DNA of 64,000 bases from Verrucomicrobiaceae bacterium (GTDB taxonomy: Bacteria > Verrucomicrobiota > Verrucomicrobiia > Verrucomicrobiales > Verrucomicrobiaceae). The stretch spans positions 6,930 to 70,929 of the forward strand of contig JAIXYN010000006.1 in the NCBI GenBank assembly GCA_027490195.1, written 5' to 3'. Each line of letters opens with the position of its first letter. Position 1 is the stretch's first letter. This document shows positions 3,000 to 64,000 of this stretch, one piece after another. Position numbers and translations under genes: made by a program. A model generated the notes under the pieces. The model saw only the letters and a list, made by a program, of their open reading frames with translations. It was not told the DNA's origin and made no database searches.

Positions 3000-3235
3000 C
3001 ATATGGGGCGGAGATTGTCAGGATAACAACCTAGAAGCAAGACTGAAAAACGCGGACCGATACCAAGGGCACTTTCGGAGATCTGCTGCGGCAGCATGAG
3101 GTGCAGGCGGCAGGCTCCCCAAAATCCTCCTCTGCCTGTGACTCCTCCTCTTCCTCCCGGGAAGGCACCATGGACGCAGCGGCCGCTTCCATCACCGAAA
3201 CCCGCAGCGCCTAATTTACCAATTTCTACCACACC

Positions 3236-3453
3236 ATGCAATCCAATACTAGGCGTGCCAGCGCCTAGACCAGCTCCGCGTGCGCGACAATCCGCTGACC
3301 ACCCTGCCTGCGGGCTTTGCCGCGATGCCGAGTACCATCGAAATCACCGGCAAGAAGATCCGTCAAGAGTATCTGCCGCAGGAACTGCGCGGCCACATGA
3401 GCACTGAGAAGCCGCCCGTGAAACCGAAGGTGATCGTGAAGCCCGTGAAGTGA
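3236..3453 (+). pseudogene. Probable leucine-rich-repeat gene remnant
   Basis: Frame 3253-3453 reads ACQRLDQLRVRDNPLTTLPAGFAAMPSTIEITG... (LxxLxVxxNxLxxLP pattern) with no in-frame start; the ATG at 3236 (ACACCATG context) is in another frame and stops after 10 codons. Confidence 0.45.
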
Positions 3454-4861: not shown

Positions 4862-7105
4862 TCAGAGAGTTTGGGCGATTTTTTCGAGTTCGTAGCACTC
4901 GATGACGTCGTTTTCTTCGTAGTCGCTGAAGCCGGAGAGCTTGATACCGCACTCCATGCCGTTGCGCACTTCGTTGACTTCGTCCTGGAAGCGGCGCAGC
5001 GTTTCAAAGCCGCCGTCATACACAGCCTGGCCGTCACGCAGCACGCGGGCGCGCTGCTTGCGGTTCATGACACCATCGGTGACGACGGAGCCGCCGACGA
5101 AGCCCTTGTTGACTTTGAAGACCTGCTTCACGCGGGCATGGCCGATGACCTTTTCGCGGGTGATCGGATCGAGCAATCCGGCCATGGCTTCCTTCACCTG
5201 ATCGATGAGTTCGTAGATGATGGAGTAGAGCTTCACCTGCACCGTCTCGCGCTTGGAAACGACGAGGGCCTTGTTCTCCACCTTGACGTTGAAGCCGATG
5301 ATGATGGCGTCCGAGGCGCTGGCCAGCAGGACGTCGGACTCGTTGATGGCGCCGACTTCCTTGTGCAGGATGTCGAGGTTGCACTTGTCGCTCTTGATGT
5401 CGGTGAGGCACTTGGCCACCGCTTCCACAGAGCCCTGCACGTCGCACTTGAGGACGACCTTGAGGGCCTTCTTGTTGCTGTCCTCGATGCTGGCAAAGAG
5501 GTGCTCCAAAGTGGAGCGGCGCGGCACGTTGAGCTTCTTTTGACGGATCTCTTCGAGGCGCTCCTCGCTGAGCTTCTTCACGTCGCGCTCGCTGTTCATG
5601 ACGACGACTTCGTCGCCCACATGCGGCATGTCGCTGAAGCCGATGACTTCGCAGGGCATGCCCGGAAGAACAGCTTTGATGGACTCGCCGCGGTCGTTGA
5701 TGATCGCCTTGACCTTGCCCCAGAGCGGGCCGCAGATGAAGGGCTGGCCGACTTTGAGCGTGCCCTGGCCGATGATTACGGTGGCCACGGGTCCTTTGCC
5801 GGCCACCATGGAAGATTCGATGACCGTCGCACGAGGAGAGGCCTTGGGGTCTGCCTTGAGTTCCAGCACTTCGGCCTGGAGGGACATGGTTTCGAGGAGG
5901 TTTTCGAGTCCGAGACCAGTTTTGGCCGAGACTTCCATGACTTCGATCTCACCACCCCAGTCAACTGGCGCAAGGCCGATGTCCTGCAACTGGCTTTTAA
6001 CGCGCAGGATGTTGGCTCCGGGAAGGTCACACTTGTTCAGCGCCACCATGAGCTGCACTTTAGCGGCCTTGGCATGACTGAGAGCTTCCTTGGTCTGCGG
6101 CATGATGCCGTCGTCCGCTGCGATGACGAGGACGACGATGTCCGTGACATTGGCACCACGGGCGCGCATGGCCGAGAAGGCGGCATGGCCGGGTGTGTCG
6201 ATGAATGTGATGGGCTTGCCGTTGTGCCAGATGCAGTAAGCACCGATGTGCTGCGTGATGCCACCCGCTTCTCCCGCAGTGACTTCCGTCTTGCGCAGGG
6301 CGTCCAGCAGCGAGGTTTTGCCATGGTCAACGTGACCCATGAAAGTGATGATCGGGGCGCGGAGTTCCAGCTTCTCCTCCTCCACCTCTTCAACGACCTG
6401 GGCGACAGGTTCAACGATGACTTCCTCCACCTTGTGGACGCCGCCGCCTTTTTCACGCTTGTCGCGCTCCAGCTTGAAGCCGTGCTTCTCGCAGATTTTT
6501 TCGGCAATCTCAATGTCGATGGCCTTGTCAGCGCTGGCGAAGACCTTGAACGCGATGAGTTCAGAAATGATCTTGAAGGGCTTCAGGCCCATCTTGTCCG
6601 CCAGATCCTTGACCACGAAAGGTGGCTTCAGGTGGATGATTTTTTCACCGCTTTCACCGAGTTCAAATTCAGGCACCACGACCTCGGCAGGAGGGAGGTG
6701 CACGATCGGGACGATCGGCTTCGGCGGGGTGGGGTCATTCAGCAGAGAAATGGGCGGCAGCGCATTCTGCTGGGCGTTTTCATCCACCGGACGTCGACGC
6801 ACCTTTGGCTTTTCGTCATCCTCAAAGAGGTTCAGCGCGGCAGCCTTGCGCTCATCCAGCGTCGGCTTGGGGGGCACCACAGGCTGTGGCTCCGGCACTG
6901 GCACGACTACTTTTTTGGCCCCTAAAGGCGGCAGCGAGTGGTCTTTAACCGGCCCTCTGGTCCGGGGCTTCTTTCCCTCAATCAACGACAGCACCTCACC
7001 TTTGACTTCTTTTTTGGGCTTGGCGCTTTCGACAGGCACAGCGTCCTCAACGACCTCGTCGGTGGGGGACTTGCTCTTTTTGGCGGATGAGGGTTTGCTG
7101 GGCAT
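4862..7105 (-). CDS. infB: Translation initiation factor IF-2
   Basis: G-domain motifs [24 protein letters not shown]; IF2 C-terminal domains (GMECGI). Confidence 0.98.
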
Positions 7106-7194: not shown

Positions 7195-8460
7195 CTACTC
7201 CTTGGAAGGAGATGAAGCATGTGCTGCGGCTTTATCGAAAATCTGCTGGGCCAAGGCCTCGTTACCATCCAGCACCTCGGCGATGTCAGAGACATCGACT
7301 CCGGTGGCCAGTGTCTTGAGATCACCCATGCCGCCTTGGGTCAGCTGGCGGGCCACTTCTTCAGTGATGCCGAGAGCGTCCACGAGGTGATGCACCGCGC
7401 TGCCCATCTGGCCTTCGAAGACTTCGGCTGCGTGTTCATCCTTCTCGATGACGAGGTCCATGCCCACGAGGCGTGAAGTCAGGCGTGCATTCTGACCGCG
7501 ACGGCCGATGGCCTTCGAGAGGTCTTCGTCGCTGACGGTGAGGCGCGCTTCCTTCTTGTCCACGTTGACCGAGATGGAAATGACCTTGATCGGCTTGAGG
7601 GCTTCACGAACGAACTCAGCGGGATCCGACTTCCAGCGGATGATGTCCACTTTCTCGTTGTTCAGCTCGCGGACGATGTTCTTCACACGCGCGCCCCGCA
7701 GACCGACGCAGGCACCCACGGGGTCCACCTTTTCATCGGCGCTGTGCACGGCCACCTTGGTGCGGTATCCGGCCTCACGGGCGATACTGGCGATCTCCAC
7801 GGTGCGATCACCGATTTCGCTGACTTCAAATTCAAACAGACGGCGCACGAAATTCGGATGCGCACGGGAGAGGATGATTTCAGGGCCACGGCCGCTGTCT
7901 TTTTCCACCGCCTTGACGTAGAAGCGCATGCGGTCACCCGGGGTGTAGTCCTCGGTGGACACACGTTCCTTGGAGGTCATGACGCCTTCGAACTTGCCGA
8001 GGTCCACGACCACGTCGGATTTTTCAAAGCGACGCACCACGCCGCTGACGACGTCACCTGTGCGGTCCTTGAATTCCTCATAGAGGTTTTCTTTCTCCGC
8101 CATGCGGAGGCGCTGCAGCATTGTCTGCTTGGCAGTCTGCGCGGCGATGCGGCCCATGTTGTTGGGCGTGACTTCGACTTCGATCTCGTCACCCAGCACG
8201 GCGCTCTTCTTGAAGCGCTTGGCCGTTTCGAGCTGAAGCTCCTCCCAGCGGTTGGCCACAGTCTCCACCGCGATCAGTTTGGCGAAGGCCTTGATGGTTC
8301 CTTTGTCAGGATCAATGTCGATGCGCAGTTCCCGTGCGGGACCGATGCTTTTTTTGGAGGCGGCGAGCAATGCCTGTGACAGGGCCTCGACCATTTTGGT
8401 TCGGTCGATTCCTTTCTCTTTCTCGTAATAGTCGAAGAGGGCTTTGAGTTCGCTGATCAT
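7195..8460 (-). CDS. nusA: Transcription termination/antitermination factor NusA
   Basis: GRIAAQTAKQ, S1 and KH motifs (AREAGYRTKVAV, DPVGACVGLRGARV, AIGRRGQNARL); upstream of infB. Confidence 0.98.
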   Translation of the reverse strand: MISELKALFDYYEKEKGIDRTKMVEALSQALLAASKKSIGPARELRIDIDPDKGTIKAFAKLIAVETVANRWEELQLETAKRFKKSAVLGDEIEVEVTPNNMGRIAAQTAKQTMLQRLRMAEKENLYEEFKDRTGDVVSGVVRRFEKSDVVVDLGKFEGVMTSKERVSTEDYTPGDRMRFYVKAVEKDSGRGPEIILSRAHPNFVRRLFEFEVSEIGDRTVEIASIAREAGYRTKVAVHSADEKVDPVGACVGLRGARVKNIVRELNNEKVDIIRWKSDPAEFVREALKPIKVISISVNVDKKEARLTVSDEDLSKAIGRRGQNARLTSRLVGMDLVIEKDEHAAEVFEGQMGSAVHHLVDALGITEEVARQLTQGGMGDLKTLATGVDVSDIAEVLDGNEALAQQIFDKAAAHASSPSKE

Positions 8461-51521: not shown

Positions 51522-51836
51522 TTAGCGCAGCGTGGATGGAATCGTTGGGCTGCTCGGGGCGGCGGGGCTTGGAGCAGGCGCGGGGGCCGGTGTCGGCGCG
51601 GCAGGTGCGGAAGGCTCAAGACTCATGGGCGCTGCGGGCTGTTCGGTACGGGCATTGTACTGATAGCGCATCTTCGGATTGCCTCGTGCTTTGCGTGGGG
51701 GCAGTCCCCAGCTCACATCGAAGGCATCCTGCTGGGACACCGTGGGATGACGGGAGTCAACATGCTCAAAGGAACCGCAGGAACTGAGAAGGGTCGCGGC
51801 AAGCAGAGCGGCAAAGATGAAGCGCAGAGATGTCAT
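51522..51836 (-). CDS. Small lipoprotein with Pro/Ala-rich tail, paralog A
   Basis: Lipobox LSSC; shares RHPTVSQQDA(F/Y)D.SWGL.PRK.RGNPKMR.QYN with paralog B. Confidence 0.8.
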   Translation of the reverse strand: MTSLRFIFAALLAATLLSSCGSFEHVDSRHPTVSQQDAFDVSWGLPPRKARGNPKMRYQYNARTEQPAAPMSLEPSAPAAPTPAPAPAPSPAAPSSPTIPSTLR

Positions 51837-52014
51837 TGTTTGGCAGAATTGAATTCTTAACGGGCCACGATACTAGGCGGGCTGTCTCTAGCTGGCAAGA
51901 TCGAAGTCTTGGACGCTGCGACCAGCCATTCCGTTCAGTCTCCACCAAGGCGGCCACGCCGTGGGTACTGGGCAGGATAAGAATGCGCAGTGCAATGCCA
52001 GCCCCGGTCCAAAC

Positions 52015-52221
52015 TCATTGCACAGCGGCCTGCTCGGCCCTGGAATTGTATTGAAAGCGCATCTTCGGGTTGCCACGCACTTTGCGGGGTGCCAGTCCCC
52101 AGCTCAAATCATAGGCATCCTGCTGGGACACCGTGGGATGCCGGGCATCAGCAGGCTCAACACAGGAGCTGAGAAGTGTGGCGGCAAGTAAAGCGGCAAG
52201 GAGGAAGCTCAGAGATTTCAT
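52015..52221 (-). CDS. Small lipoprotein, paralog B (68 aa, lacks the Pro-rich tail)
   Basis: Start placed at MKSLSFLLAALLAATLLSSC by alignment to paralog A. Confidence 0.7.
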   Translation of the reverse strand: MKSLSFLLAALLAATLLSSCVEPADARHPTVSQQDAYDLSWGLAPRKVRGNPKMRFQYNSRAEQAAVQ

Positions 52222-52316
52222 GGTTGGCTGAATGGAATTCCTATCAATCCACGAACCAGGAGGTCTGGCTCTAGCTGGCAGGATCGCGGTCTTGGACGCC
52301 GCACCAGCCAATCCGT

Positions 52317-52673
52317 TCAGTTTCCACGCACAAGACGCACCGCCACATGGTCGGTATCAGGCAGGATGCGTTTCCGTAGGTCAATGCTGACCCCCACGGC
52401 CTGGAACTCCTCCATCACACAAGCCGCCATCTCGGCGGCGAGGGTTTCGATCAGCCTGCGCGGCCGCTCCGCCGCCAGTTCCTGAAGCCTCGCGGCCACT
52501 GCGGCGTAGTCGATTGTCGCAGAGATCTCATCGTTCATCGCCTCGAATCGACCAGCGATCCGCAGGGTGACATCAGCCTCCAGCACCTGGCTCGTAGCAC
52601 GTTCCTCCTCGGGAACGCCGATGTGCGTGGTCAGCCGCAGGGCGGAGATGCGTATTTCGTCGGGCGGTGACAT
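52317..52673 (-). CDS. folB: Dihydroneopterin aldolase
   Basis: HIGVPEEER...Q.LEADV, TIDYAAV, RLIETLA. Confidence 0.9.
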   Translation of the reverse strand: MSPPDEIRISALRLTTHIGVPEEERATSQVLEADVTLRIAGRFEAMNDEISATIDYAAVAARLQELAAERPRRLIETLAAEMAACVMEEFQAVGVSIDLRKRILPDTDHVAVRLVRGN

Positions 52674-55613: not shown

Positions 55614-56477
55614 ATGGGCAAAATCCAATTCGGTTCCGAAGTTTACACCTGGTTCATGCAGGGCACCGGCAAAGGCTACGACAACAAGCTCGACCACATG
55701 ATCAAGGTCGCCTCAGAAGCAGGCTTCACCGGCATCGAGCCGATGGTGCTGGAGATCTCCCAGAGCGCCCTCGGCTGCTCCAAGTACTGGCTCGGTGACT
55801 TCATTGATCCAATCAAGCTCAAGGACGTGCTGCAGAAGTACAACGTGCAGCTTGCTGGCCTCGCCCTCGTCTGCGCCTGGGACGGCGAAACCGAAGCGCC
55901 AAATGAAAAGGAAGCCGCTGACTTCACCCTCAACTTCCTCAAGCACTTCCCTGGCTCCATGCTCGGTACGGTGACGCTGCCAAGCGGCCGCAAGGACAAC
56001 CTCCAAAATCGCCGCCTCAACATCGCTAAGAACGTCAACCGCATCTCCCAGCGCGCCGCCGATCTCGGCATCAAGGCCTCCTACCACCCGAACTCCCCGC
56101 CCGCCTCCCTCGTCCGCACCCAGGAAGACTACGACGTCGTCCTCAGCAGCCTCGACCCCAAAGTCACTGGCTGGACTCCGGACGTCGGCCACATCATCCG
56201 CGGCGGCATGGACGTCATCGCCACCCTCAACAAGTGGCAGCACCTGGTGAACCACATCCACTACAAGGACTTCTCCGGCAACGGCGCCGAGCCTTGGGCC
56301 CAAATGGGCACCGGCAAGCTCGACTTCCACAAGATCACCGAGTGGCTCGTCTCCCGCAATTACTCCGGCTGGATCATCTGCGAAGACGAAGCCCACGTCG
56401 CCGTCGATGACCCCGATGGTGTGACCATGCAGAACGGCGAGTGGTGCAAGACCAACCTGCATCCGATCGTGGCGTAA
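55614..56477 (+). CDS. Sugar phosphate isomerase/epimerase (IolE-like TIM barrel)
   Basis: AGFTGIEP, YHPN, DVGH, HIHYKD, GWIICEDE metal ligands. Confidence 0.88.
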   Translation: MGKIQFGSEVYTWFMQGTGKGYDNKLDHMIKVASEAGFTGIEPMVLEISQSALGCSKYWLGDFIDPIKLKDVLQKYNVQLAGLALVCAWDGETEAPNEKEAADFTLNFLKHFPGSMLGTVTLPSGRKDNLQNRRLNIAKNVNRISQRAADLGIKASYHPNSPPASLVRTQEDYDVVLSSLDPKVTGWTPDVGHIIRGGMDVIATLNKWQHLVNHIHYKDFSGNGAEPWAQMGTGKLDFHKITEWLVSRNYSGWIICEDEAHVAVDDPDGVTMQNGEWCKTNLHPIVA

Positions 56478-58053: not shown

Positions 58054-58218
58054 TGGATAAGAGCTATGAATGGATCCGCAGGACTGCCCCAGAGGGCCGC
58101 GGATTCGCCCGCCACGGCAGGCAGGCCCCCTGCGCGGTCTATTATCAAAAAGGTTGGACACCCCAGCGCTGATTCAGATAGCCTCATCAAGCACTCCCCT
58201 CACTCTTCCTCCCATTCC

Positions 58219-58641
58219 ATGACGTCCCTGCCCGCCGTTGCCTCAGCCCTGCTCCTCCTCATCCTCCTGAGCAGTTGCTGCTCCGCCCCCAAGCCCCCGG
58301 TGGATTCTTATGAACACCTCACGATCTCCGGAGTGATCGACGGCAGCGAGAAGTTCATCTTCGCCCCGGAGCAAGTGAAGTGGGTGCACCTCCACTGGTC
58401 TGAGCCCGATGACATGACGTTCAAGGGCAAGCCTTGGAACAACCCGCGCAAGACACCGGCCCAGTGGGCCGACTTTGCACATCTGGATCTTCCCCATTCG
58501 CGCATCGTCCAGCGCCAGGGCCGCGACGTCGTGGCCCTGGAACCAACCGCGAGCGGCTTTGTCCTGTATCTGGTCGATTCACCCAATGGCGCCGACAACT
58601 ACTCCGTCACCATCGCCATTCCCAAACAGCGGAAGAAGTGA
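58219..58641 (+). CDS. Hypothetical lipoprotein
   Basis: Lipobox LLSSC; start placed at MTSLPAV. Confidence 0.75.
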   Translation: MTSLPAVASALLLLILLSSCCSAPKPPVDSYEHLTISGVIDGSEKFIFAPEQVKWVHLHWSEPDDMTFKGKPWNNPRKTPAQWADFAHLDLPHSRIVQRQGRDVVALEPTASGFVLYLVDSPNGADNYSVTIAIPKQRKK

Positions 58642-58698
58642 GTCCACCCCCGTGACCTCACGGTGATTCATGCAGACCCAAGGTCGCCACGAAACGTT

Positions 58699-59400
58699 AT
58701 GCGTCACCTCCTGCTCCCCACACTCGCGCTTCTCCTGCTGGCTCCCGGTTGCAGCCGCAAGCCACCCAAGGCCGTCGTCCCGCCGCTGCCTGCCGTGAAG
58801 GTGGAAGACGTCCATGCCCCGGCCAGTCCGGCCGTAACGATTGCGCGCGGATCGAACCTGCGCGAGGTGGCGACCACCGCCTACGGGCACGAGGATTTCA
58901 GCGGCTTCGTCGCAGCGCTCAATGGCTTGGCCAATCCTGAACGTGTGGCGGCCGGTGCCATGCTCAAGACACCCTCCCTGCCCGCCGCCTTGCGTGATGC
59001 CGGACTCGGCCCAGCCTACCAGCCTGCCTTCAATGTGCTGGCCCAGACCTGGGCGGAACTGCGCACAGCACTGCCGGACTACCAGCGCGAGCGCGATCTT
59101 GCTCTCCATGCCTCCGGCAGTCGTGATAGCACCACGTTCGCGATCTCCGTCCCTCTCAGCCGCCGTCTCCTCCAATGCGCGGACAATATGGATGCCGCAC
59201 TCGATGTGCTGGGCCATCCCCAGGCAGGCCACAAGCTGCCGCGCAGCACCCTCGGCCAGTTTGCCGGAGCCTCGGGCTATCTGCGCCTCTTCGCGACGGG
59301 TCAGGTCGGGAGCCTCGACTACGACGTCTTCCTGGCTGAAAAAAGCTTTGGCCTGGGCTTCAGCTATGCCCTGATCTGGGTGCAGGCGCACCATCAATGA
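58699..59400 (+). CDS. Hypothetical lipoprotein with LysM-like segment
   Basis: Lipobox APGC; IARGSNLREVATTAYG...LAALNGLANPERVAAGAMLKTP resembles LysM. Confidence 0.7.
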   Translation: MRHLLLPTLALLLLAPGCSRKPPKAVVPPLPAVKVEDVHAPASPAVTIARGSNLREVATTAYGHEDFSGFVAALNGLANPERVAAGAMLKTPSLPAALRDAGLGPAYQPAFNVLAQTWAELRTALPDYQRERDLALHASGSRDSTTFAISVPLSRRLLQCADNMDAALDVLGHPQAGHKLPRSTLGQFAGASGYLRLFATGQVGSLDYDVFLAEKSFGLGFSYALIWVQAHHQ

Positions 59401-59458
59401 ACTCGTAAAGCGAATGCCCCCCTTCTCCGCTCAGACTGCTTGCCGGACTTTTCCGGGA

Positions 59459-59529
59459 CGTAGGTTGGTCGTGTTTGGCGTGCCTGGCTTTCTCCTTCTC
59501 CCCATTGCGCTTCGCCAAACCGCCCGACT
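59459..59529. repeat. About 70-bp palindromic dispersed repeat, copy B (inverted relative to copy A)
   Basis: CTTCGCCAAACCGCCCGACT is the exact reverse complement of 36509-36528; the other arm matches 23/25. Confidence 0.8.
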
Positions 59530-59578
59530 GTTTGCGTGTTCGCCCCCCATGTGGCGTGCTAGGCAATGGCACATTCGT

Positions 59579-59632
59579 TCACACCACCGACCCCGCCACA
59601 TCCTTCCACTTCGCGTGCCATTCATCGAACAC
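59579..59632 (-). repeat. Duplicated 3' end (including a stop codon) of the gene at 60866-61993
   Basis: 59591-59632 is identical to 60878-60919 (42 bp); 54 bp with 4 mismatches; encodes VFDEWHAKWKDVAGSVV* versus VFDEWHAKWKDVAGPVV*. Confidence 0.92.
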
Positions 59633-59704
59633 CAGCTGCCCTAAAGAGTTGGACATCACCATCCCGTTTGAAATACCCTGGGACTCAACCTCCCATCGAG
59701 CCCC

Positions 59705-60292
59705 ATGCCTCCACGTTTTCCAGTCTTTTGGGTCACCCTGCTGCTGTTCATCTTGGTAGCAGCGTCCACACAGGACGCTTTAGTGGGCGGCGTCCACCTC
59801 ATCCTCATCCTGCCGTTGGTCCTTTTGGGCCAGTGGTGCGTGCGCTGGCTTTTTCGTCGGTTTCACTCCCCGGTGTGGCTGCGTCGCAGCGCCATGCTGC
59901 TGCCAGCTCTTGTTCTTGCAGCCAAACTTTTCATCGCCGGCGGAAGAGACACCCAGGCTCTCAGAATCGCATTTGCAGGAAACATACCTGCCGGAATCCA
60001 TGATCTACACATCCAGGAAGACGCGTGGACCGACTATGTGGTAACCGCCTACTTCCGCTGCGATCCCGCAAGCCTGCGCGCCATTCTTGAGCGCCCACCC
60101 TTCACCCGCAGTAGCTCCCAGCCAGAACCTCTCGAGTTCAGTACAACAGACTTTCCAGGTCTTCACGCCTTGCCTGATTTTAACGGCCTCATCACGTTTA
60201 AGCGCACCGACATGGAAAACGGCAGCGACTACTGCACGGTGCAGACGGATGCCACATTCAGCTTTGCCTGCATCGTCTATTCCGTGGATTGA
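59705..60292 (+). CDS. Hypothetical membrane protein
   Basis: Three N-terminal hydrophobic segments and a soluble C-terminal domain; lies inside the direct-repeat-bounded islet. Confidence 0.75.
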   Translation: MPPRFPVFWVTLLLFILVAASTQDALVGGVHLILILPLVLLGQWCVRWLFRRFHSPVWLRRSAMLLPALVLAAKLFIAGGRDTQALRIAFAGNIPAGIHDLHIQEDAWTDYVVTAYFRCDPASLRAILERPPFTRSSSQPEPLEFSTTDFPGLHALPDFNGLITFKRTDMENGSDYCTVQTDATFSFACIVYSVD

Positions 60293-60322
60293 CTCAATCC
60301 ATCAACGAATCCAGGCCTCACA

Positions 60323-60853
60323 ATGAAAAGCCGCCTGCTGCTCCTTTCTCTACTTCTATCGCTGCTCCAGCCATCCTGCGCCACACGCCTCGCTTGTGAC
60401 TTCTCAGCACCCAGACTGAGCTGGCAGCATCCCAAGACGCCCAAAGACGGCAGTGAGGAGGGCCGTGTGGCGAGTTACATCACAGGCTGCACCGAGGACG
60501 GCTTTACCCTGTCCGAAGTGAACCACATCAATCATCTGCCGCAATGCGGTATGGATCTCTTTGCCACCTTTCTGACACTGGGCTTGATCCCACACTCCGC
60601 CCCCAATCCGATCCGTGCCACCGTTACAGGGTATGTCGATGGCCGGAAGAAAACAGAAACTTTCGCGCTCTCAATCGAGCGCCACACCTCCCTCTGGCAC
60701 AATCTGCTGCCCGAACGCCACGATGACCGCGTCATCGCACGCGCGGTGCTTCAAGCTCTCCGCCACCGGAAGGAGCGTGATCCAGAGATGCAAAAGCTGC
60801 TGAATCAATACGGAAAATTGGAACTAGAGAAGCTCAAAGCACACAAGGGATGA
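60323..60853 (+). CDS. Hypothetical lipoprotein
   Basis: MKSRLLLLSLLLSLLQPSC lipobox; inside the islet. Confidence 0.75.
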   Translation: MKSRLLLLSLLLSLLQPSCATRLACDFSAPRLSWQHPKTPKDGSEEGRVASYITGCTEDGFTLSEVNHINHLPQCGMDLFATFLTLGLIPHSAPNPIRATVTGYVDGRKKTETFALSIERHTSLWHNLLPERHDDRVIARAVLQALRHRKERDPEMQKLLNQYGKLELEKLKAHKG

Positions 60854-60865
60854 AAGGCAGCGCCC

Positions 60866-61993
60866 CTACACTACCGGCCCCGCCACATCCTTCCACTTCG
60901 CGTGCCATTCATCGAACACGATCGGTGAGATCTCGCTGGGCTTGATTTCGCTGCGGCCGCCCCAGAACACGTTGGTGTATTCGACTGGGATGCCGGACTC
61001 GATGAGGTGCTTGTCGATGGCGGCCTTGTGGGAGAGCACTGTGTCCTTGTCGGTGCCGTGGATGACGCCCATGATGTTCACGTTGGCAAAGCGGTCGCCA
61101 CCTTCACGCCAGTAGGCGTGGGTCATGATGGGATGACGCCCCACCTCGCCGCCGGCGCGTTCTTCCATGCCCTTCGGCACCTTCCAGTGGAAGAGCGCAT
61201 TGAAGCGCGTGACGCGCACGCCCGTGGCGCTGGGTTTGACATGCTCCAGGAAGGTGGAGAAGCGGCCGATGACGCCCTTCTCATCCAGGCGCTTGGCGAC
61301 TTCACAAAATTTCTCAAACGAGACTCCGGAGGCCTTGGCTCGGCCTTCCCAAGGAATAGGGCCGACTTCCTCGATGGAGAGGTCACCTTTGAGATGCAGC
61401 AGCACATTCCACTCTTCGGCATCCAGTTCGGCGATGTTGGTGGTCATCATCACGGCGGGCACATCGGCCTTTTCGCCGGGTTCCATCGTCTTGCGCCGCA
61501 CATGACCGACGCCAAGGGCGAAGATGCCATGCGCCTGCATGGTGTAGTAGCTTTCAGCACCGATCAGACGTGCCAGCACATCGCAATGATGATTGATGTC
61601 ATAGCCCTGCGGCACTTTCAGCGTGGTCCACAGGCGGTAGTCGCTGCCGCTGACCTCGCGGTCGGTGGAGCGCAGCACCACGTGGCCGCTGAAAGGGTCC
61701 TGCTTGAAGAGAAATTCAAAGGCGGCTTCCAGCTTTTCCGGCGGCACTTTCCAGGCCACCAGTGCGCCTTCAGCCAACTTGTTCGCCAACAGGGTCTGCC
61801 GCACGCGGCGGATCACTCCGGCCTTCAGCATCGCTTGAATGCGCTCCACCACGGTCTCCAGTGGCAGGCCGCAGCCTTGTGCAATGTCCTGGAACGGCGT
61901 GGGGGTGAAGCCTTTGATGCGGTCTTCGCTCACGGCGAGGATTTGCGCGTTGATCGGGTCGGTATGGTCGGTGGGAAGGTCGGCGGCGGACAT
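60866..61993 (-). CDS. Fused AhbA-AhbB / NirDL-like protein (siroheme decarboxylase-like; Lrp/AsnC fold twice)
   Basis: Two tandem wHTH + alpha/beta units: TPTPFQDIA.GCGLPLETVVERIQAMLKAGVIRRV and KRLDEKGVIGRF...NALFHWKVP...THAYWR...NIMGVIHG. Confidence 0.72.
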   Translation of the reverse strand: MSAADLPTDHTDPINAQILAVSEDRIKGFTPTPFQDIAQGCGLPLETVVERIQAMLKAGVIRRVRQTLLANKLAEGALVAWKVPPEKLEAAFEFLFKQDPFSGHVVLRSTDREVSGSDYRLWTTLKVPQGYDINHHCDVLARLIGAESYYTMQAHGIFALGVGHVRRKTMEPGEKADVPAVMMTTNIAELDAEEWNVLLHLKGDLSIEEVGPIPWEGRAKASGVSFEKFCEVAKRLDEKGVIGRFSTFLEHVKPSATGVRVTRFNALFHWKVPKGMEERAGGEVGRHPIMTHAYWREGGDRFANVNIMGVIHGTDKDTVLSHKAAIDKHLIESGIPVEYTNVFWGGRSEIKPSEISPIVFDEWHAKWKDVAGPVV

Positions 61994-62096
61994 GGCTGGT
62001 AGTCGGGGGGGAGTCACCCTTAGAGGCAACCCGAAGGAAATGCGAGATTTGAAATTTGCGATTTAGCACCCATCAATTGCCGTCTAGGATGGGCCC

Positions 62097-62474
62097 ATGG
62101 ACAACCGCAAGCCCACCGCCGCCATGCGCAGGCGCCACAACCTGATCTCGGCGTGGCGCGGCGTGGAGGACGGGCCGCTCATGGACCTTCCCACCCTCAG
62201 GGTGGGAGACCTCGCCACGCAGATCATGGCCAAGGCCGGCATGGCGAACCGCGTGAAGCTGGAGGACATCCTTGCCGCTTGGCAGGAGATCGTCGGCGCG
62301 TTCCTCTTCAAGCTCACCCGCCCAGACACCTTTGAGCGCGGCATCCTCACCGTCCGCCTCATGCAACCCACGGCCCACCACGCGCTAATGCAGGAGAAAG
62401 TGAAAATTCTCAAGCGTCTGCAGGAGAAGCTGCCCGATGCGAAGATCAAGGATGTCCGCTTCCGCCATGGGTGA
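62097..62474 (+). CDS. DUF721 / DciA family protein
   Basis: AWQEIVG...TRPDTFERGILTV...LQEKL...IKDVRFR. Confidence 0.8.
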   Translation: MDNRKPTAAMRRRHNLISAWRGVEDGPLMDLPTLRVGDLATQIMAKAGMANRVKLEDILAAWQEIVGAFLFKLTRPDTFERGILTVRLMQPTAHHALMQEKVKILKRLQEKLPDAKIKDVRFRHG

Positions 62475-62482
62475 ACGGAAAA

Positions 62483-62563
62483 AAATGACGAAAGCAGAAT
62501 GAGGAATGACGAATTGTTTCCAACCGTGCAAGCCATGACGTAATGACTTCTCATTCGTCATTC
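62483..62563. repeat. AATGACGAA-family imperfect hairpin between dciA and the cbiX-like gene
   Basis: AATGACGAAAGCAGAATGAGGAATGACGAAT ... TTCTCATTCGTCATTCC. Confidence 0.7.
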
Positions 62564-62579
62564 CAGCTCCCATCTCTTC

Positions 62580-64000
62580 TTGAACTCTCACTCCCACGCC
62601 GCCCTCATCATTATCGGTCACGGTTCCACCACGAATCCGGACTCCAGCGCCCCTACACACCTGCACGCCGACTCCATTCGCCGTCGCGGCCTCTTCCGCG
62701 AAGTCGCCTGCTGCTTCTGGAAGGAAGAACCCAACATGCGCGAGGTCTACGAGATGGTGGACAGCGAGGTCATCTACATCGTCCCGAATTTCATCAGCGA
62801 AGGCTACTTCTGCCAGCAGGTGATCCCGCGTGAGCTGCGGCTCGACGGCCCCACCACGCAGCGCGATGGCAAAACGATCCACTACTGCGATCCCGTGGGC
62901 ATACACCCGAACATGACGCGCCTTCTGCTGCAGCGCGCCGATGAAGTCGCCCCCCATGTGCCGCGTGATCAGACCAGCCTCGTCATCGTCGGCCACGGCA
63001 CCAGCCTGAACGAAAACTCCACCAAGGCCATTCAGGATCAGGTCGCCCTCATTCGCGGCGGCCACTACGGCTTCGCTGAAGTCATCGACACCTACATGGA
63101 GGAGGCCCCCTTTGTGAAGGACTGGGCCACGCTCACCACCGCGCCGAACGTCGTCGTCGTTCCTTTCTTCATCGCCGATGGCCTGCACAGCTTTCAAGAC
63201 ATCCCCGTCCTTCTCGGCATGCGCGAGGACGTCGGTGCAGCCCTCAGCGAGATCGGCGTCTTCCATCAAAACCCGCACCATCTCCAGGGCCGCCAGATCT
63301 ACTACAGCGGCGCCATCGGCACCGAGCCCCTCATGGCAGATGTCATCCTCGATCAGGTGAACGACTTCGATGCCAAGCACCAAGTGCAGAACAAAAAAGG
63401 CCTACCGAACGACGAGGTGAAATCCTCCCTCGCCTACTGGCTGAACTCCGGAATCGATGAAATCGGTGAGATCGTCATCACGACCAACCCCGACGGCACC
63501 TACTCGCTCTGCCACATCGCCGATCGCGGCAGAGAGGATCTCCAAGTCCACCACGAAGCTTACGATGCCCTCTTCATCGCCCGGAACGATGCCAGCGGCA
63601 CCTTCCGCCCGCTGCATTCCGCCCCCACCCTGAATCGCGGCTGGCGGCTCGACCTTGCCGACCTCGACAAACTGCGCCTAGCCCTCGATTTCTTCTACCC
63701 CGCCGCCATCGGCATGGCACGCGCACTTGAGCAGGAAAAGCTTACCGCCGTCCCGCTACGCGATCTCCTCGGCCGCCAGACCGGCATGTACCGCTTCGCC
63801 AACAACATCACCGATGATCAGGCCCACGCACTCATCGGCAAGACCTGCGCCAACACCAAGTGCCTCCGCCGCATCCTCTGGCCCCTCACCGCCACCCAGC
63901 CCATGGACGGAGCCGCAGCCGCCAAAACGCAGCCCACTCACGCCCCCAACGCCATGCCTCTCCTCTGCATCGAAGCCTGCACGCATGTCGTTTCAGCAGC
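62580..64000 (+). CDS. CbiX/SirB chelatase-fold protein fused to a DR2241-like Cys-rich domain (runs off the right edge)
   Basis: Manual translation from TTG 62580: ALIIIGHGS...CFWKEEP...VPNFISEGYF; second unit LVIVGHGT...YMEEAP...VPFFIADGLH; then FRPLHSAP, FFYPAA, RQTGMY, CANTKCLRRILW, LCIEAC. Missing from the ORF track because there is no stop in the window. Confidence 0.85.
   Translation, partial: MNSHSHAALIIIGHGSTTNPDSSAPTHLHADSIRRRGLFREVACCFWKEEPNMREVYEMVDSEVIYIVPNFISEGYFCQQVIPRELRLDGPTTQRDGKTIHYCDPVGIHPNMTRLLLQRADEVAPHVPRDQTSLVIVGHGTSLNENSTKAIQDQVALIRGGHYGFAEVIDTYMEEAPFVKDWATLTTAPNVVVVPFFIADGLHSFQDIPVLLGMREDVGAALSEIGVFHQNPHHLQGRQIYYSGAIGTEPLMADVILDQVNDFDAKHQVQNKKGLPNDEVKSSLAYWLNSGIDEIGEIVITTNPDGTYSLCHIADRGREDLQVHHEAYDALFIARNDASGTFRPLHSAPTLNRGWRLDLADLDKLRLALDFFYPAAIGMARALEQEKLTAVPLRDLLGRQTGMYRFANNITDDQAHALIGKTCANTKCLRRILWPLTATQPMDGAAAAKTQPTHAPNAMPLLCIEACTHVVSA

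Follow-up and report, generated by a model that had tools for sequence, protein, structure and literature searches.

How does the end of a metabolic gene come to be present twice, on both sides of two genes of another kind? This is the question raised by a small islet within the stretch of 64,000 nt that we analyzed (hereafter the window; Verrucomicrobiaceae bacterium, assembly GCA_027490195.1, contig JAIXYN010000006.1), in which the 3' end of a fused AhbA/AhbB-like gene (ahbAB, siroheme decarboxylase-type) borders a membrane protein gene and a lipoprotein gene on both sides. Att-type (attachment-site) integration regenerates the 3' end of its target, usually at tRNAs, and the earlier note on this DNA had proposed either an integrase-less satellite of this type or a homology-driven capture by single crossover. 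The latter proposal comes close to the best explanation. We consider it probable that chromosomal DNA of relatives, bearing its own ahbAB end, was captured here by homology-anchored recombination and subsequently spread by homologous exchange. The islet is best explained as a recombination scar at a flexible locus, and not as a self-mobile or new mobile element.

The direct repeat covers 52 nt with 96% identity (59581–59632 and 60868–60919) at a spacing of 1287 bp and contains a 42-nt core that is identical in both copies. This 42-mer was found twice in the window, compared to zero expected in shuffled sequences, and twice in the whole 6.98-Mb genome (G000), both times on the 272-kb contig that bears the locus (C92), so that this assembly has no further copy to which a recombinase could be linked, as the note had proposed to look for. 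Extended to 54 bp (59579–59632 and 60866–60919), the two copies show four nucleotide differences (C/T, A/G, and AG/GA), TGA vs TAG included, exactly as first described. Each of them encodes V-F-D-E-W-H-A-K-W-K-D-V-A-G-(P/S)-V-V followed by a stop, that is, 17 sense codons and not the 18 counted before, and the two protein ends are a single residue apart (..KDVAGPVV vs ..KDVAGSVV). One copy (60866..60919, minus strand, TAG) is the present end of ahbAB (60866..62029, minus strand), and the other (59579..59632, minus strand, TGA) is a displaced, older, non-coding relic. The two enclose a 195-aa membrane protein gene (59705..60292, plus strand) and a 176-aa lipoprotein gene (60323..60853, plus strand), the stop of which sits 12 nt past the in-gene copy. 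A 72-nt leader (59633..59704, plus strand) connects the displaced end to the membrane protein gene, its distal ~10 nt being the illegitimate junction. Open reading frames (ORFs) and domain scans agree with the earlier observation that no integrase or transposase is present between the repeats. These features are best explained if the TAG copy came in with the cargo and the TGA copy is the resident end, pushed 1287 bp downstream.

Displaced ends were sought in the locus of each relative with its own gene end, and with a degenerate-pattern screen of 105 genomes of the genus Prosthecobacter. Most of these relatives are freshwater metagenome-assembled genomes (MAGs), G005 being the isolate P. fluviatilis. 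At least six other genomes (G001, G021, G016, G123, G092, and G075) carry displaced ahbAB ends with different cargo, all except G075 falling in the clade with at least 90% AhbAB identity. The displaced copies of G001 and G021 are decayed (85–91%) and that of G016 is identical over 75 of 75 positions. In G123 the second copy is found 4.5 kb off, and in G092 it is on an abutting contig, with a gap of ~33 nt and the contig break inside the cargo. In gene orientation, and giving the left edge of each displaced end (tail) relative to its stop codon, the window reads ahbAB, lipoprotein, membrane protein, tail (-54), dispersed repeat, orf245, orf191. The other arrangements are ahbAB, membrane protein, tail (-51/-54), GNAT, orf191 in G001; ahbAB, DUF6966 protein, tail (about -92), GNAT in G021; ahbAB, u129, SDR, tail (-83), 1430-aa protein in G016; ahbAB, GNAT, 62-nt linker, tail (-58), u129, orf245, orf191 in G092; and ahbAB, 1430-aa protein, G092-type linker, tail (-58), GrpB, orf245, orf191 in G123. 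Finally, G068 has ahbAB, u129, orf245, and orf191 without any duplication and is the exact empty allele of G092, since the sequence past the displaced stop of G092 is that past the real stop of G068. Both the empty and the alternative-cargo alleles that had been set as a test of the insertion are thus found among the relatives.

It is the position of the shared blocks that tells what the cargo is. In G068 the real end is followed by the u129-orf245 block, which in G092 stands behind the displaced one. Likewise, the 1430-aa gene comes after the real end in G123 and the displaced one in G016, and the GNAT gene after the real end in G092 and the displaced ones in G001 and G021, and in all these cases homology begins directly past the stop codons. 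The sequences past the displaced ends of G092 and G016 are those past the real ends of G068 and G123, respectively, which bears out the claim that the displaced copy is the original gene end. As a block standing behind a displaced end here can be found behind a real end there, the cargo is no dedicated element but the ordinary ahbAB neighborhood of another lineage, stacked before the resident one. Donor-type genomes, with the cargo directly after ahbAB and the same stop as in the in-gene copy, were seen for the G016 and G092 alleles. The stops also differ between the copies of one genome, TAG/TGA in the window and GTG-TAG vs GTC-TAA in G016.

The right edge of the displaced copies is always the stop codon, and the left edges are variable: -54 in the window and in G001, -58 in G092 and G123, -83 in G016, about -92 in G021, and -107 in G075. 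A fixed edge at the stop together with a variable start is what a homology border combined with a random illegitimate junction predicts, and the size of the duplicated pieces, all of at least 51 nt, is consistent with a homology-dependent step that has a minimal homology requirement. Two pairs of genomes, G000 with G001 and G092 with G123, have the same cargo/tail junction in front of different downstream DNA. No recombinase was detected in the cargo of the window or in the scanned cargo of the relatives, including the 4.5-kb and 7.4-kb ones; the proteins concerned are DUF6966, SDR, GNAT, GrpB, and HA-domain proteins, a large secreted protein, and a subtilisin-like protease, the last one named from its sequence and outside the domain-scanned set. 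The alleles therefore demonstrate that DNA of relatives was inserted together with the gene end it carried, that the resident end was displaced, that the illegitimate junctions vary, and that junction modules were re-used in different backgrounds, all in the absence of recombinases.

Two of these alleles have further details. The 62-nt linker and the displaced tail behind it (123 nt, 92% identity between L064 of G123, 3213–3280, and L066 of G092, about 6695–6760) are flanked in the two genomes by different DNA on both sides, and in G092 the linker provides the start codon and the first ~6 codons of the GNAT gene. In G075 (L065, contig C331) two displaced ends, 44–154 and 7490–7596, are 7.4 kb apart, both with the -107 edge and with unrelated DNA upstream. 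The interval contains genes of an HA-domain protein and a subtilisin-like protein, and the contig lacks a real ahbAB. This pair may reflect stacking in two steps, a hotspot, or an artifact of the MAG.

Why should all this take place at the end of ahbAB? One flank of the gene is conserved (ahbAB, dciA, and a CbiX-type gene), whereas on the other, from ahbAB to a conserved xylose-isomerase-fold gene (55614–56477), the content varies in nearly every species. The ahbAB end is therefore the final homology before a hypervariable region, and its final ~100 nt are the last sequence common to all versions of the locus. The capture would have proceeded as follows. DNA from a related strain, carrying an ahbAB end and the lipoprotein and membrane protein genes, would have entered the cell and recombined either as a circularized fragment starting 54 nt before the stop, by a single crossover, or by homology-facilitated illegitimate recombination (HFIR), with the non-homologous end joined 54 nt before the resident stop. 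The outcome under either option would be the one seen in the window, in which the incoming end completes ahbAB and the resident TGA end is found 1287 bp downstream. Later, as the shared junctions support, the whole tail-cargo-tail unit may have moved between related genomes by double crossover, with the body of ahbAB providing the left arm and the displaced tail a short right one, which would lead to identical cargo/tail junctions ahead of different downstream genes. The two tail copies could also recombine with each other, resulting in deletion of the cargo or in mutual conversion. Neither a dedicated recombinase nor a recognition site would be needed in any of these steps. As to the entry route, ComEC and DprA homologs are present in the genome, and likewise in most control genomes, and they weakly support transformation.

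Several observations weigh against capture followed by homologous spread. The exact empty allele of the window arrangement (ahbAB, repeat, orf245) was not found, G068 having u129 in between, and two metagenome pattern scans, one for a conspecific empty allele and one for other contexts of the flank, gave 0 matches. Nor was the donor arrangement of the window's cargo found among the relatives or in the metagenome scans. Both copies in the window contain a rare GAT codon, seen elsewhere in G021 only, and this sharing would require either that one copy was converted by the other or that the donor was very closely related. Five or more independent illegitimate events at a single gene end within one clade are a large number for a process seen rarely in the laboratory, the same-edge pair of G075 and the linker common to G092 and G123 are explained only with extra steps, and most of the genomes concerned are MAGs. 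Some of these features would be expected if the displaced ends acted as maintained portable homology arms, forming a recombinase-free cassette-exchange site at ahbAB and at similar borders of other loci in Prosthecobacter genomes. Tail-cargo-tail units would then be copied, stacked, or popped out by RecA alone, in the manner of an integron that lacks an integrase. Such a system, which we judge rather unlikely, would predict the repeated use of one gene end, shared junction modules with different flanks, and near-perfect displaced copies (75/75 in G016, and the 42/42 core in the window).

Similar scars exist at other places in the same genome. When the assembly was compared with itself for unique direct repeats of 35–250 nt placed 0.25–8 kb apart, 30 pairs were obtained, several of which show a gene-border duplication around cargo. 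One counterpart, with a clean empty site in relatives, is on contig C3 (29075/31443, to 31525), where the end of a BNR/sialidase-like gene is duplicated over 83 nt around the gene of a 736-aa nSTAND1-LRR NTPase, located antisense between the BNR/sialidase-like and PFK genes. In P. fluviatilis (G005) and in G014 the same gene end is joined directly to the PFK gene. The end of an AraC-type regulator gene is duplicated around an FAD oxidoreductase gene on C24 (36672/38712, to 38817), and that of a ribonucleotide-reductase-like gene around small membrane ORFs on C54 (24737/26357, to 26443). A mirror image is found on C41 (107543/108720, to 108782), where the duplicated piece is the initial ~60 nt of a DUF1501 gene and the cargo is a YhcG/DUF1016 PDDEXK nuclease gene, inserted inside a DUF1553-DUF1501 pair. 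In the C3, C24, C54, and ahbAB loci the repeat ends no more than 8 nt from the stop codon. An attachment system specific for ahbAB is excluded for a process found at gene borders that are unrelated to it. Another direct repeat, of 122 nt (95%), occurs on C89 (15243–22827) with its copies 7.5 kb apart and the gene of a 1204-aa secreted protein between them; its upstream copy is adjoined, inside the interval, by a group-II-intron-type reverse transcriptase (551 aa, YADD motif).

These data also allow us to weigh the other explanations of the repeat. An integrase-less satellite cassette, mobilized in trans by a tyrosine or serine recombinase with the ahbAB 3' end as attB, would account for direct repeats at the borders of the cargo, for the regenerated gene end, for one site being hit repeatedly in a clade, for the identical cargo/tail junctions of two genome pairs, and for the two tails of G075 with the same -107 edge. 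We nevertheless find it improbable. The edges of the duplicated segments vary between events and leave no fixed attachment core, there is no conserved terminal motif, and the cargo blocks are normal chromosomal neighbors of ahbAB in other species. A helper is not apparent either, with none of the six matches to the tyrosine recombinase family PF00589 in the genome located on the 272-kb contig and no third copy of the 42-mer to mark its attP, and the recurrence of the same architecture at unrelated gene ends would demand several site specificities. Another alternative is a true target-site duplication, in which a cut staggered by 54 nt receives foreign DNA and is filled in. Unique direct repeats of 46–420 bp around integrase-less inserts have been documented in several bacteria, most of them competent (PMC2853133), and the 75-nt perfect duplication of G016 would suit such an event. 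However, the in-gene copy has a different functional last codon/stop and is then followed by the native ahbAB neighbor of another lineage, so the incoming DNA carried a genuine ahbAB end, and a random staggered cut would not predict that the repeat edge is at the stop codon in four of four loci, all of which makes this origin improbable as well.

Could the arrangement have arisen within the genome, by tandem duplication or unequal crossing-over and deletions, without any import? The cargo families are resident in this region in relatives, with the lipoprotein gene, the membrane protein gene, and orf191 contiguous in G071, both tails of the window share the rare GAT codon, and a tandem duplication has taken place 8 kb away at folB. 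Yet the two tails have different stops and different sequence past them, the genome contains the cargo only once, the modules of G092, G016, G001, and G021 match arrangements of other species, and one and the same junction precedes different downstream genes in different species, leaving little room for a purely intragenomic origin. Least probable of all appears to be an assembly artifact, a MAG contig chimerically joining strain variants at their shared gene end. Most genomes are indeed MAGs, and G092 splits into two contigs within the cargo; but a 54-nt repeat is below the usual assembly k-mers, independent assemblies have the same junctions (G000 and G001, G092 and G123), the hybrid, long-read-scaffolded assembly of G016 contains the 75-nt perfect repeat, and the copies show divergence or decay of the kind found in real relics.

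Several known systems can be compared with the inserted ahbAB neighborhoods. One of them, insertion with long target duplication (Nobusato et al., 2000; Furuta et al., 2010, PMC2853133), is recognized by a unique direct repeat of more than 30 bp. The inserts lack mobility genes, the repeat is single in the empty genome and of variable length, in some cases it extends over a gene's 3' end, and most cases come from bacteria in which homologous recombination with imported DNA is active (PMC2853133). The ahbAB locus is alike in having a unique repeat of more than 30 bp that is single in G068 and double in G092, as is the C3 locus, empty in G005 and G014 compared to G000. Transposases, integrases, and other mobile-element genes are lacking within and next to the insert, and for the allele of the window only a near-empty relative (G068) was found. 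It differs in that the described cases have restriction-modification cargo and were read as target duplication, while here the cargo consists of envelope and miscellaneous accessory genes, the upstream copy is imported, and one site has been stacked repeatedly. Another parallel is the C-terminal displacement of rhs/cdiA genes (Jackson et al., 2009, as cited in PMC3150448) and the sequential displacement of effector-immunity modules of T6SS (type VI secretion systems), for which HFIR without integrase has been proposed (Kirchberger et al., 2017, PMC5361080). There too, new DNA anchored in conserved sequence pushes the old end downstream together with a short conserved piece, and a module orphaned in one genome sits on the full-length gene in another, which resembles the u129, 1430-aa, and GNAT modules placed after the real or the displaced end depending on the genome. 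In contrast to those systems, ahbAB is a metabolic gene the protein end of which is unchanged (synonymous replacement), with no toxin tip; the scanned cargo has no toxin, immunity, or defense match, and the arrays are short, with one displaced end, or possibly two in G075.

With regard to mechanism, most candidate HFIR events in Escherichia coli were single crossovers of circular molecules, which duplicated 109–950 bp of the homologous locus (PMC3240628), HFIR itself having been described by Prudhomme (2002) and de Vries and Wackernagel (2002), as cited in PMC5361080. Such Campbell-type single crossovers of non-replicating circles or HFIR events agree with the ahbAB locus in that the insert is flanked by a duplication of the homologous segment and that one-sided homology suffices. 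They were obtained with laboratory plasmids and engineered donors, whereas the donors at ahbAB would be natural chromosomal fragments and the duplications are shorter (51–107 nt). Integrase-mediated islands share with these inserts the regenerated 3' end of the target and the direct repeats at the borders, but the ahbAB inserts have no recombinase, fixed core, or coherent cargo, and their boundaries vary. A diversity-generating retroelement does not fit, as the ORFs between and beside the repeats include no reverse transcriptase and the differences are not adenine-specific. Neither does an integron cassette array, with no tyrosine recombinase on the 272-kb contig, no Rfam or other structured element at the junctions, and variable edges.

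The locus adds a well-documented case to a known phenomenon and reveals no new enzyme or element. Its value is that it clearly documents, in nature, the addition of accessory genes beside unbroken housekeeping genes in bacteria that are poor in mobile-element genes, since the incoming DNA supplies its own gene end and the old one stays behind as a datable relic. The Prosthecobacter series is unusually complete for a single locus, with one empty site, five or more independent boundaries, and modules on both real and displaced ends, and could be used to measure natural rates of homology-anchored illegitimate recombination. Furthermore, "orphan gene-end" relics of this kind could be annotated correctly, instead of as att sites, pseudogenes, or small ORFs.

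The conserved anchor gene itself has a double AsnC-fold, recognized as Pfam AsnC_trans_reg2 and NirDL-like helix-turn-helix domains, and its matches to the NCBIfam AhbB/AhbA models are below cut-off. Orthologs are single-copy, with 78–96% identity, and present in 36 of 41 relatives. At the end of the window (60866–64000) it is found beside dciA and a CbiX-DR2241-Fer4_23 gene, in an order that is kept throughout the genus and might be the sign of an unusual tetrapyrrole branch. On the variable side, the lipoprotein-like resident gene orf245 (58663..59400, plus strand) was next to ahbAB before the insertion, and has orthologs (80–85%) in G068, G092, and G123, placed there between orf191 and either ahbAB or the displaced end of the latter. 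The likewise lipoprotein-like orf191 (58066..58641, plus strand) is a resident of the variable region, with orthologs of 55–84% identity in G001, G005, G071, G081, G092, G123, G128, and G068.

Both cargo ORFs are, judging by intact homologs at 44–82% identity in several relatives, real genes. The 195-aa protein has three predicted N-terminal hydrophobic helices and the 176-aa protein a signal peptide with a ..S-C-A-T-R lipobox, in which Cys19 is conserved. Neither of them matched Pfam, NCBIfam, or PADLOC, and their AlphaFold models (pLDDT ~50) are too poor for fold comparison. Homologs of the lipoprotein occupy other positions of the same variable region in G005, G071, G081, and G086 (63–70% whole-length identity, 70–75% over the tblastn-matched stretches), and those of the membrane protein are found in G001 (82%), G081 (71%), and G071 (69%), with more distant ones (44–46%) elsewhere in G016 and G013. 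In G071, G081, and P. fluviatilis the lipoprotein and/or membrane protein genes occupy other places in the region, and no duplication is present; in the first two genomes the membrane protein gene sits ~20–30 nt after orf191. The GC content of the islet (0.56–0.59) falls within that of its surroundings, as an origin from inside the genus would lead one to expect. In the 72-nt leader, 51 nt match G001, and G001 only, at 94%. We also considered the leader as a truncated orf191-like remnant and dropped the idea, as local alignment to orf191 3' ends was no better than with shuffled sequences in two of three comparisons and the third was weak (7/500 shuffles).

Three further ideas on the origin of the boundaries were abandoned. 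Ends of GATC restriction fragments were suggested by three edges located at GATC, a post hoc observation, and only the G092/G123 junction keeps the motif. Capture of complementary DNA, for which a putative antisense terminator (60922–60939) was considered, stays a remote idea, terminator-like matches being as frequent in shuffled sequences and the co-directional 1430-aa cargo of G123 not fitting it. A recombination breakpoint inside the ahbAB gene of the window was also looked for; the gene is G021/G086-like to about -110, and its last 110 nt are too conserved to be assigned.

Downstream of the displaced end and outside the insertion there is a REP-like (repetitive extragenic palindrome) sequence of ~80 nt (59450..59530, strand unspecified), which had been described as a conserved hairpin that follows the original gene end. 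It is a dispersed repeat and not specific for the locus, and neither the repeat nor the region beside the displaced end has an Rfam match or folds better than shuffled sequences. What does stand is its placement, for P. fluviatilis has a copy (77% identity) at the same position and in the same orientation after its real ahbAB end. This is compatible with the displaced copy being the original gene end, although the P. fluviatilis copy may be an independent insertion. More than 80 copies of the repeat, with 72–82% identity, are scattered over the genome, often within 250 nt of contig ends (C1, C2, C5, C8, C9, C15, C34, C49, C54, C71, and others), so that it probably breaks the assembly, and arrays of copies are found on C32 (29.4–34.8 kb). 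Lastly, the duplication at the end of folB, for which a similar origin had been suggested, turned out to be a plain tandem duplication, in which no more of folB than its last ~11 nt is contained. It covers ~385 bp (window 51522–52327) and has doubled a small lipoprotein gene located after folB, the two paralogs being 82–92% identical in blocks.

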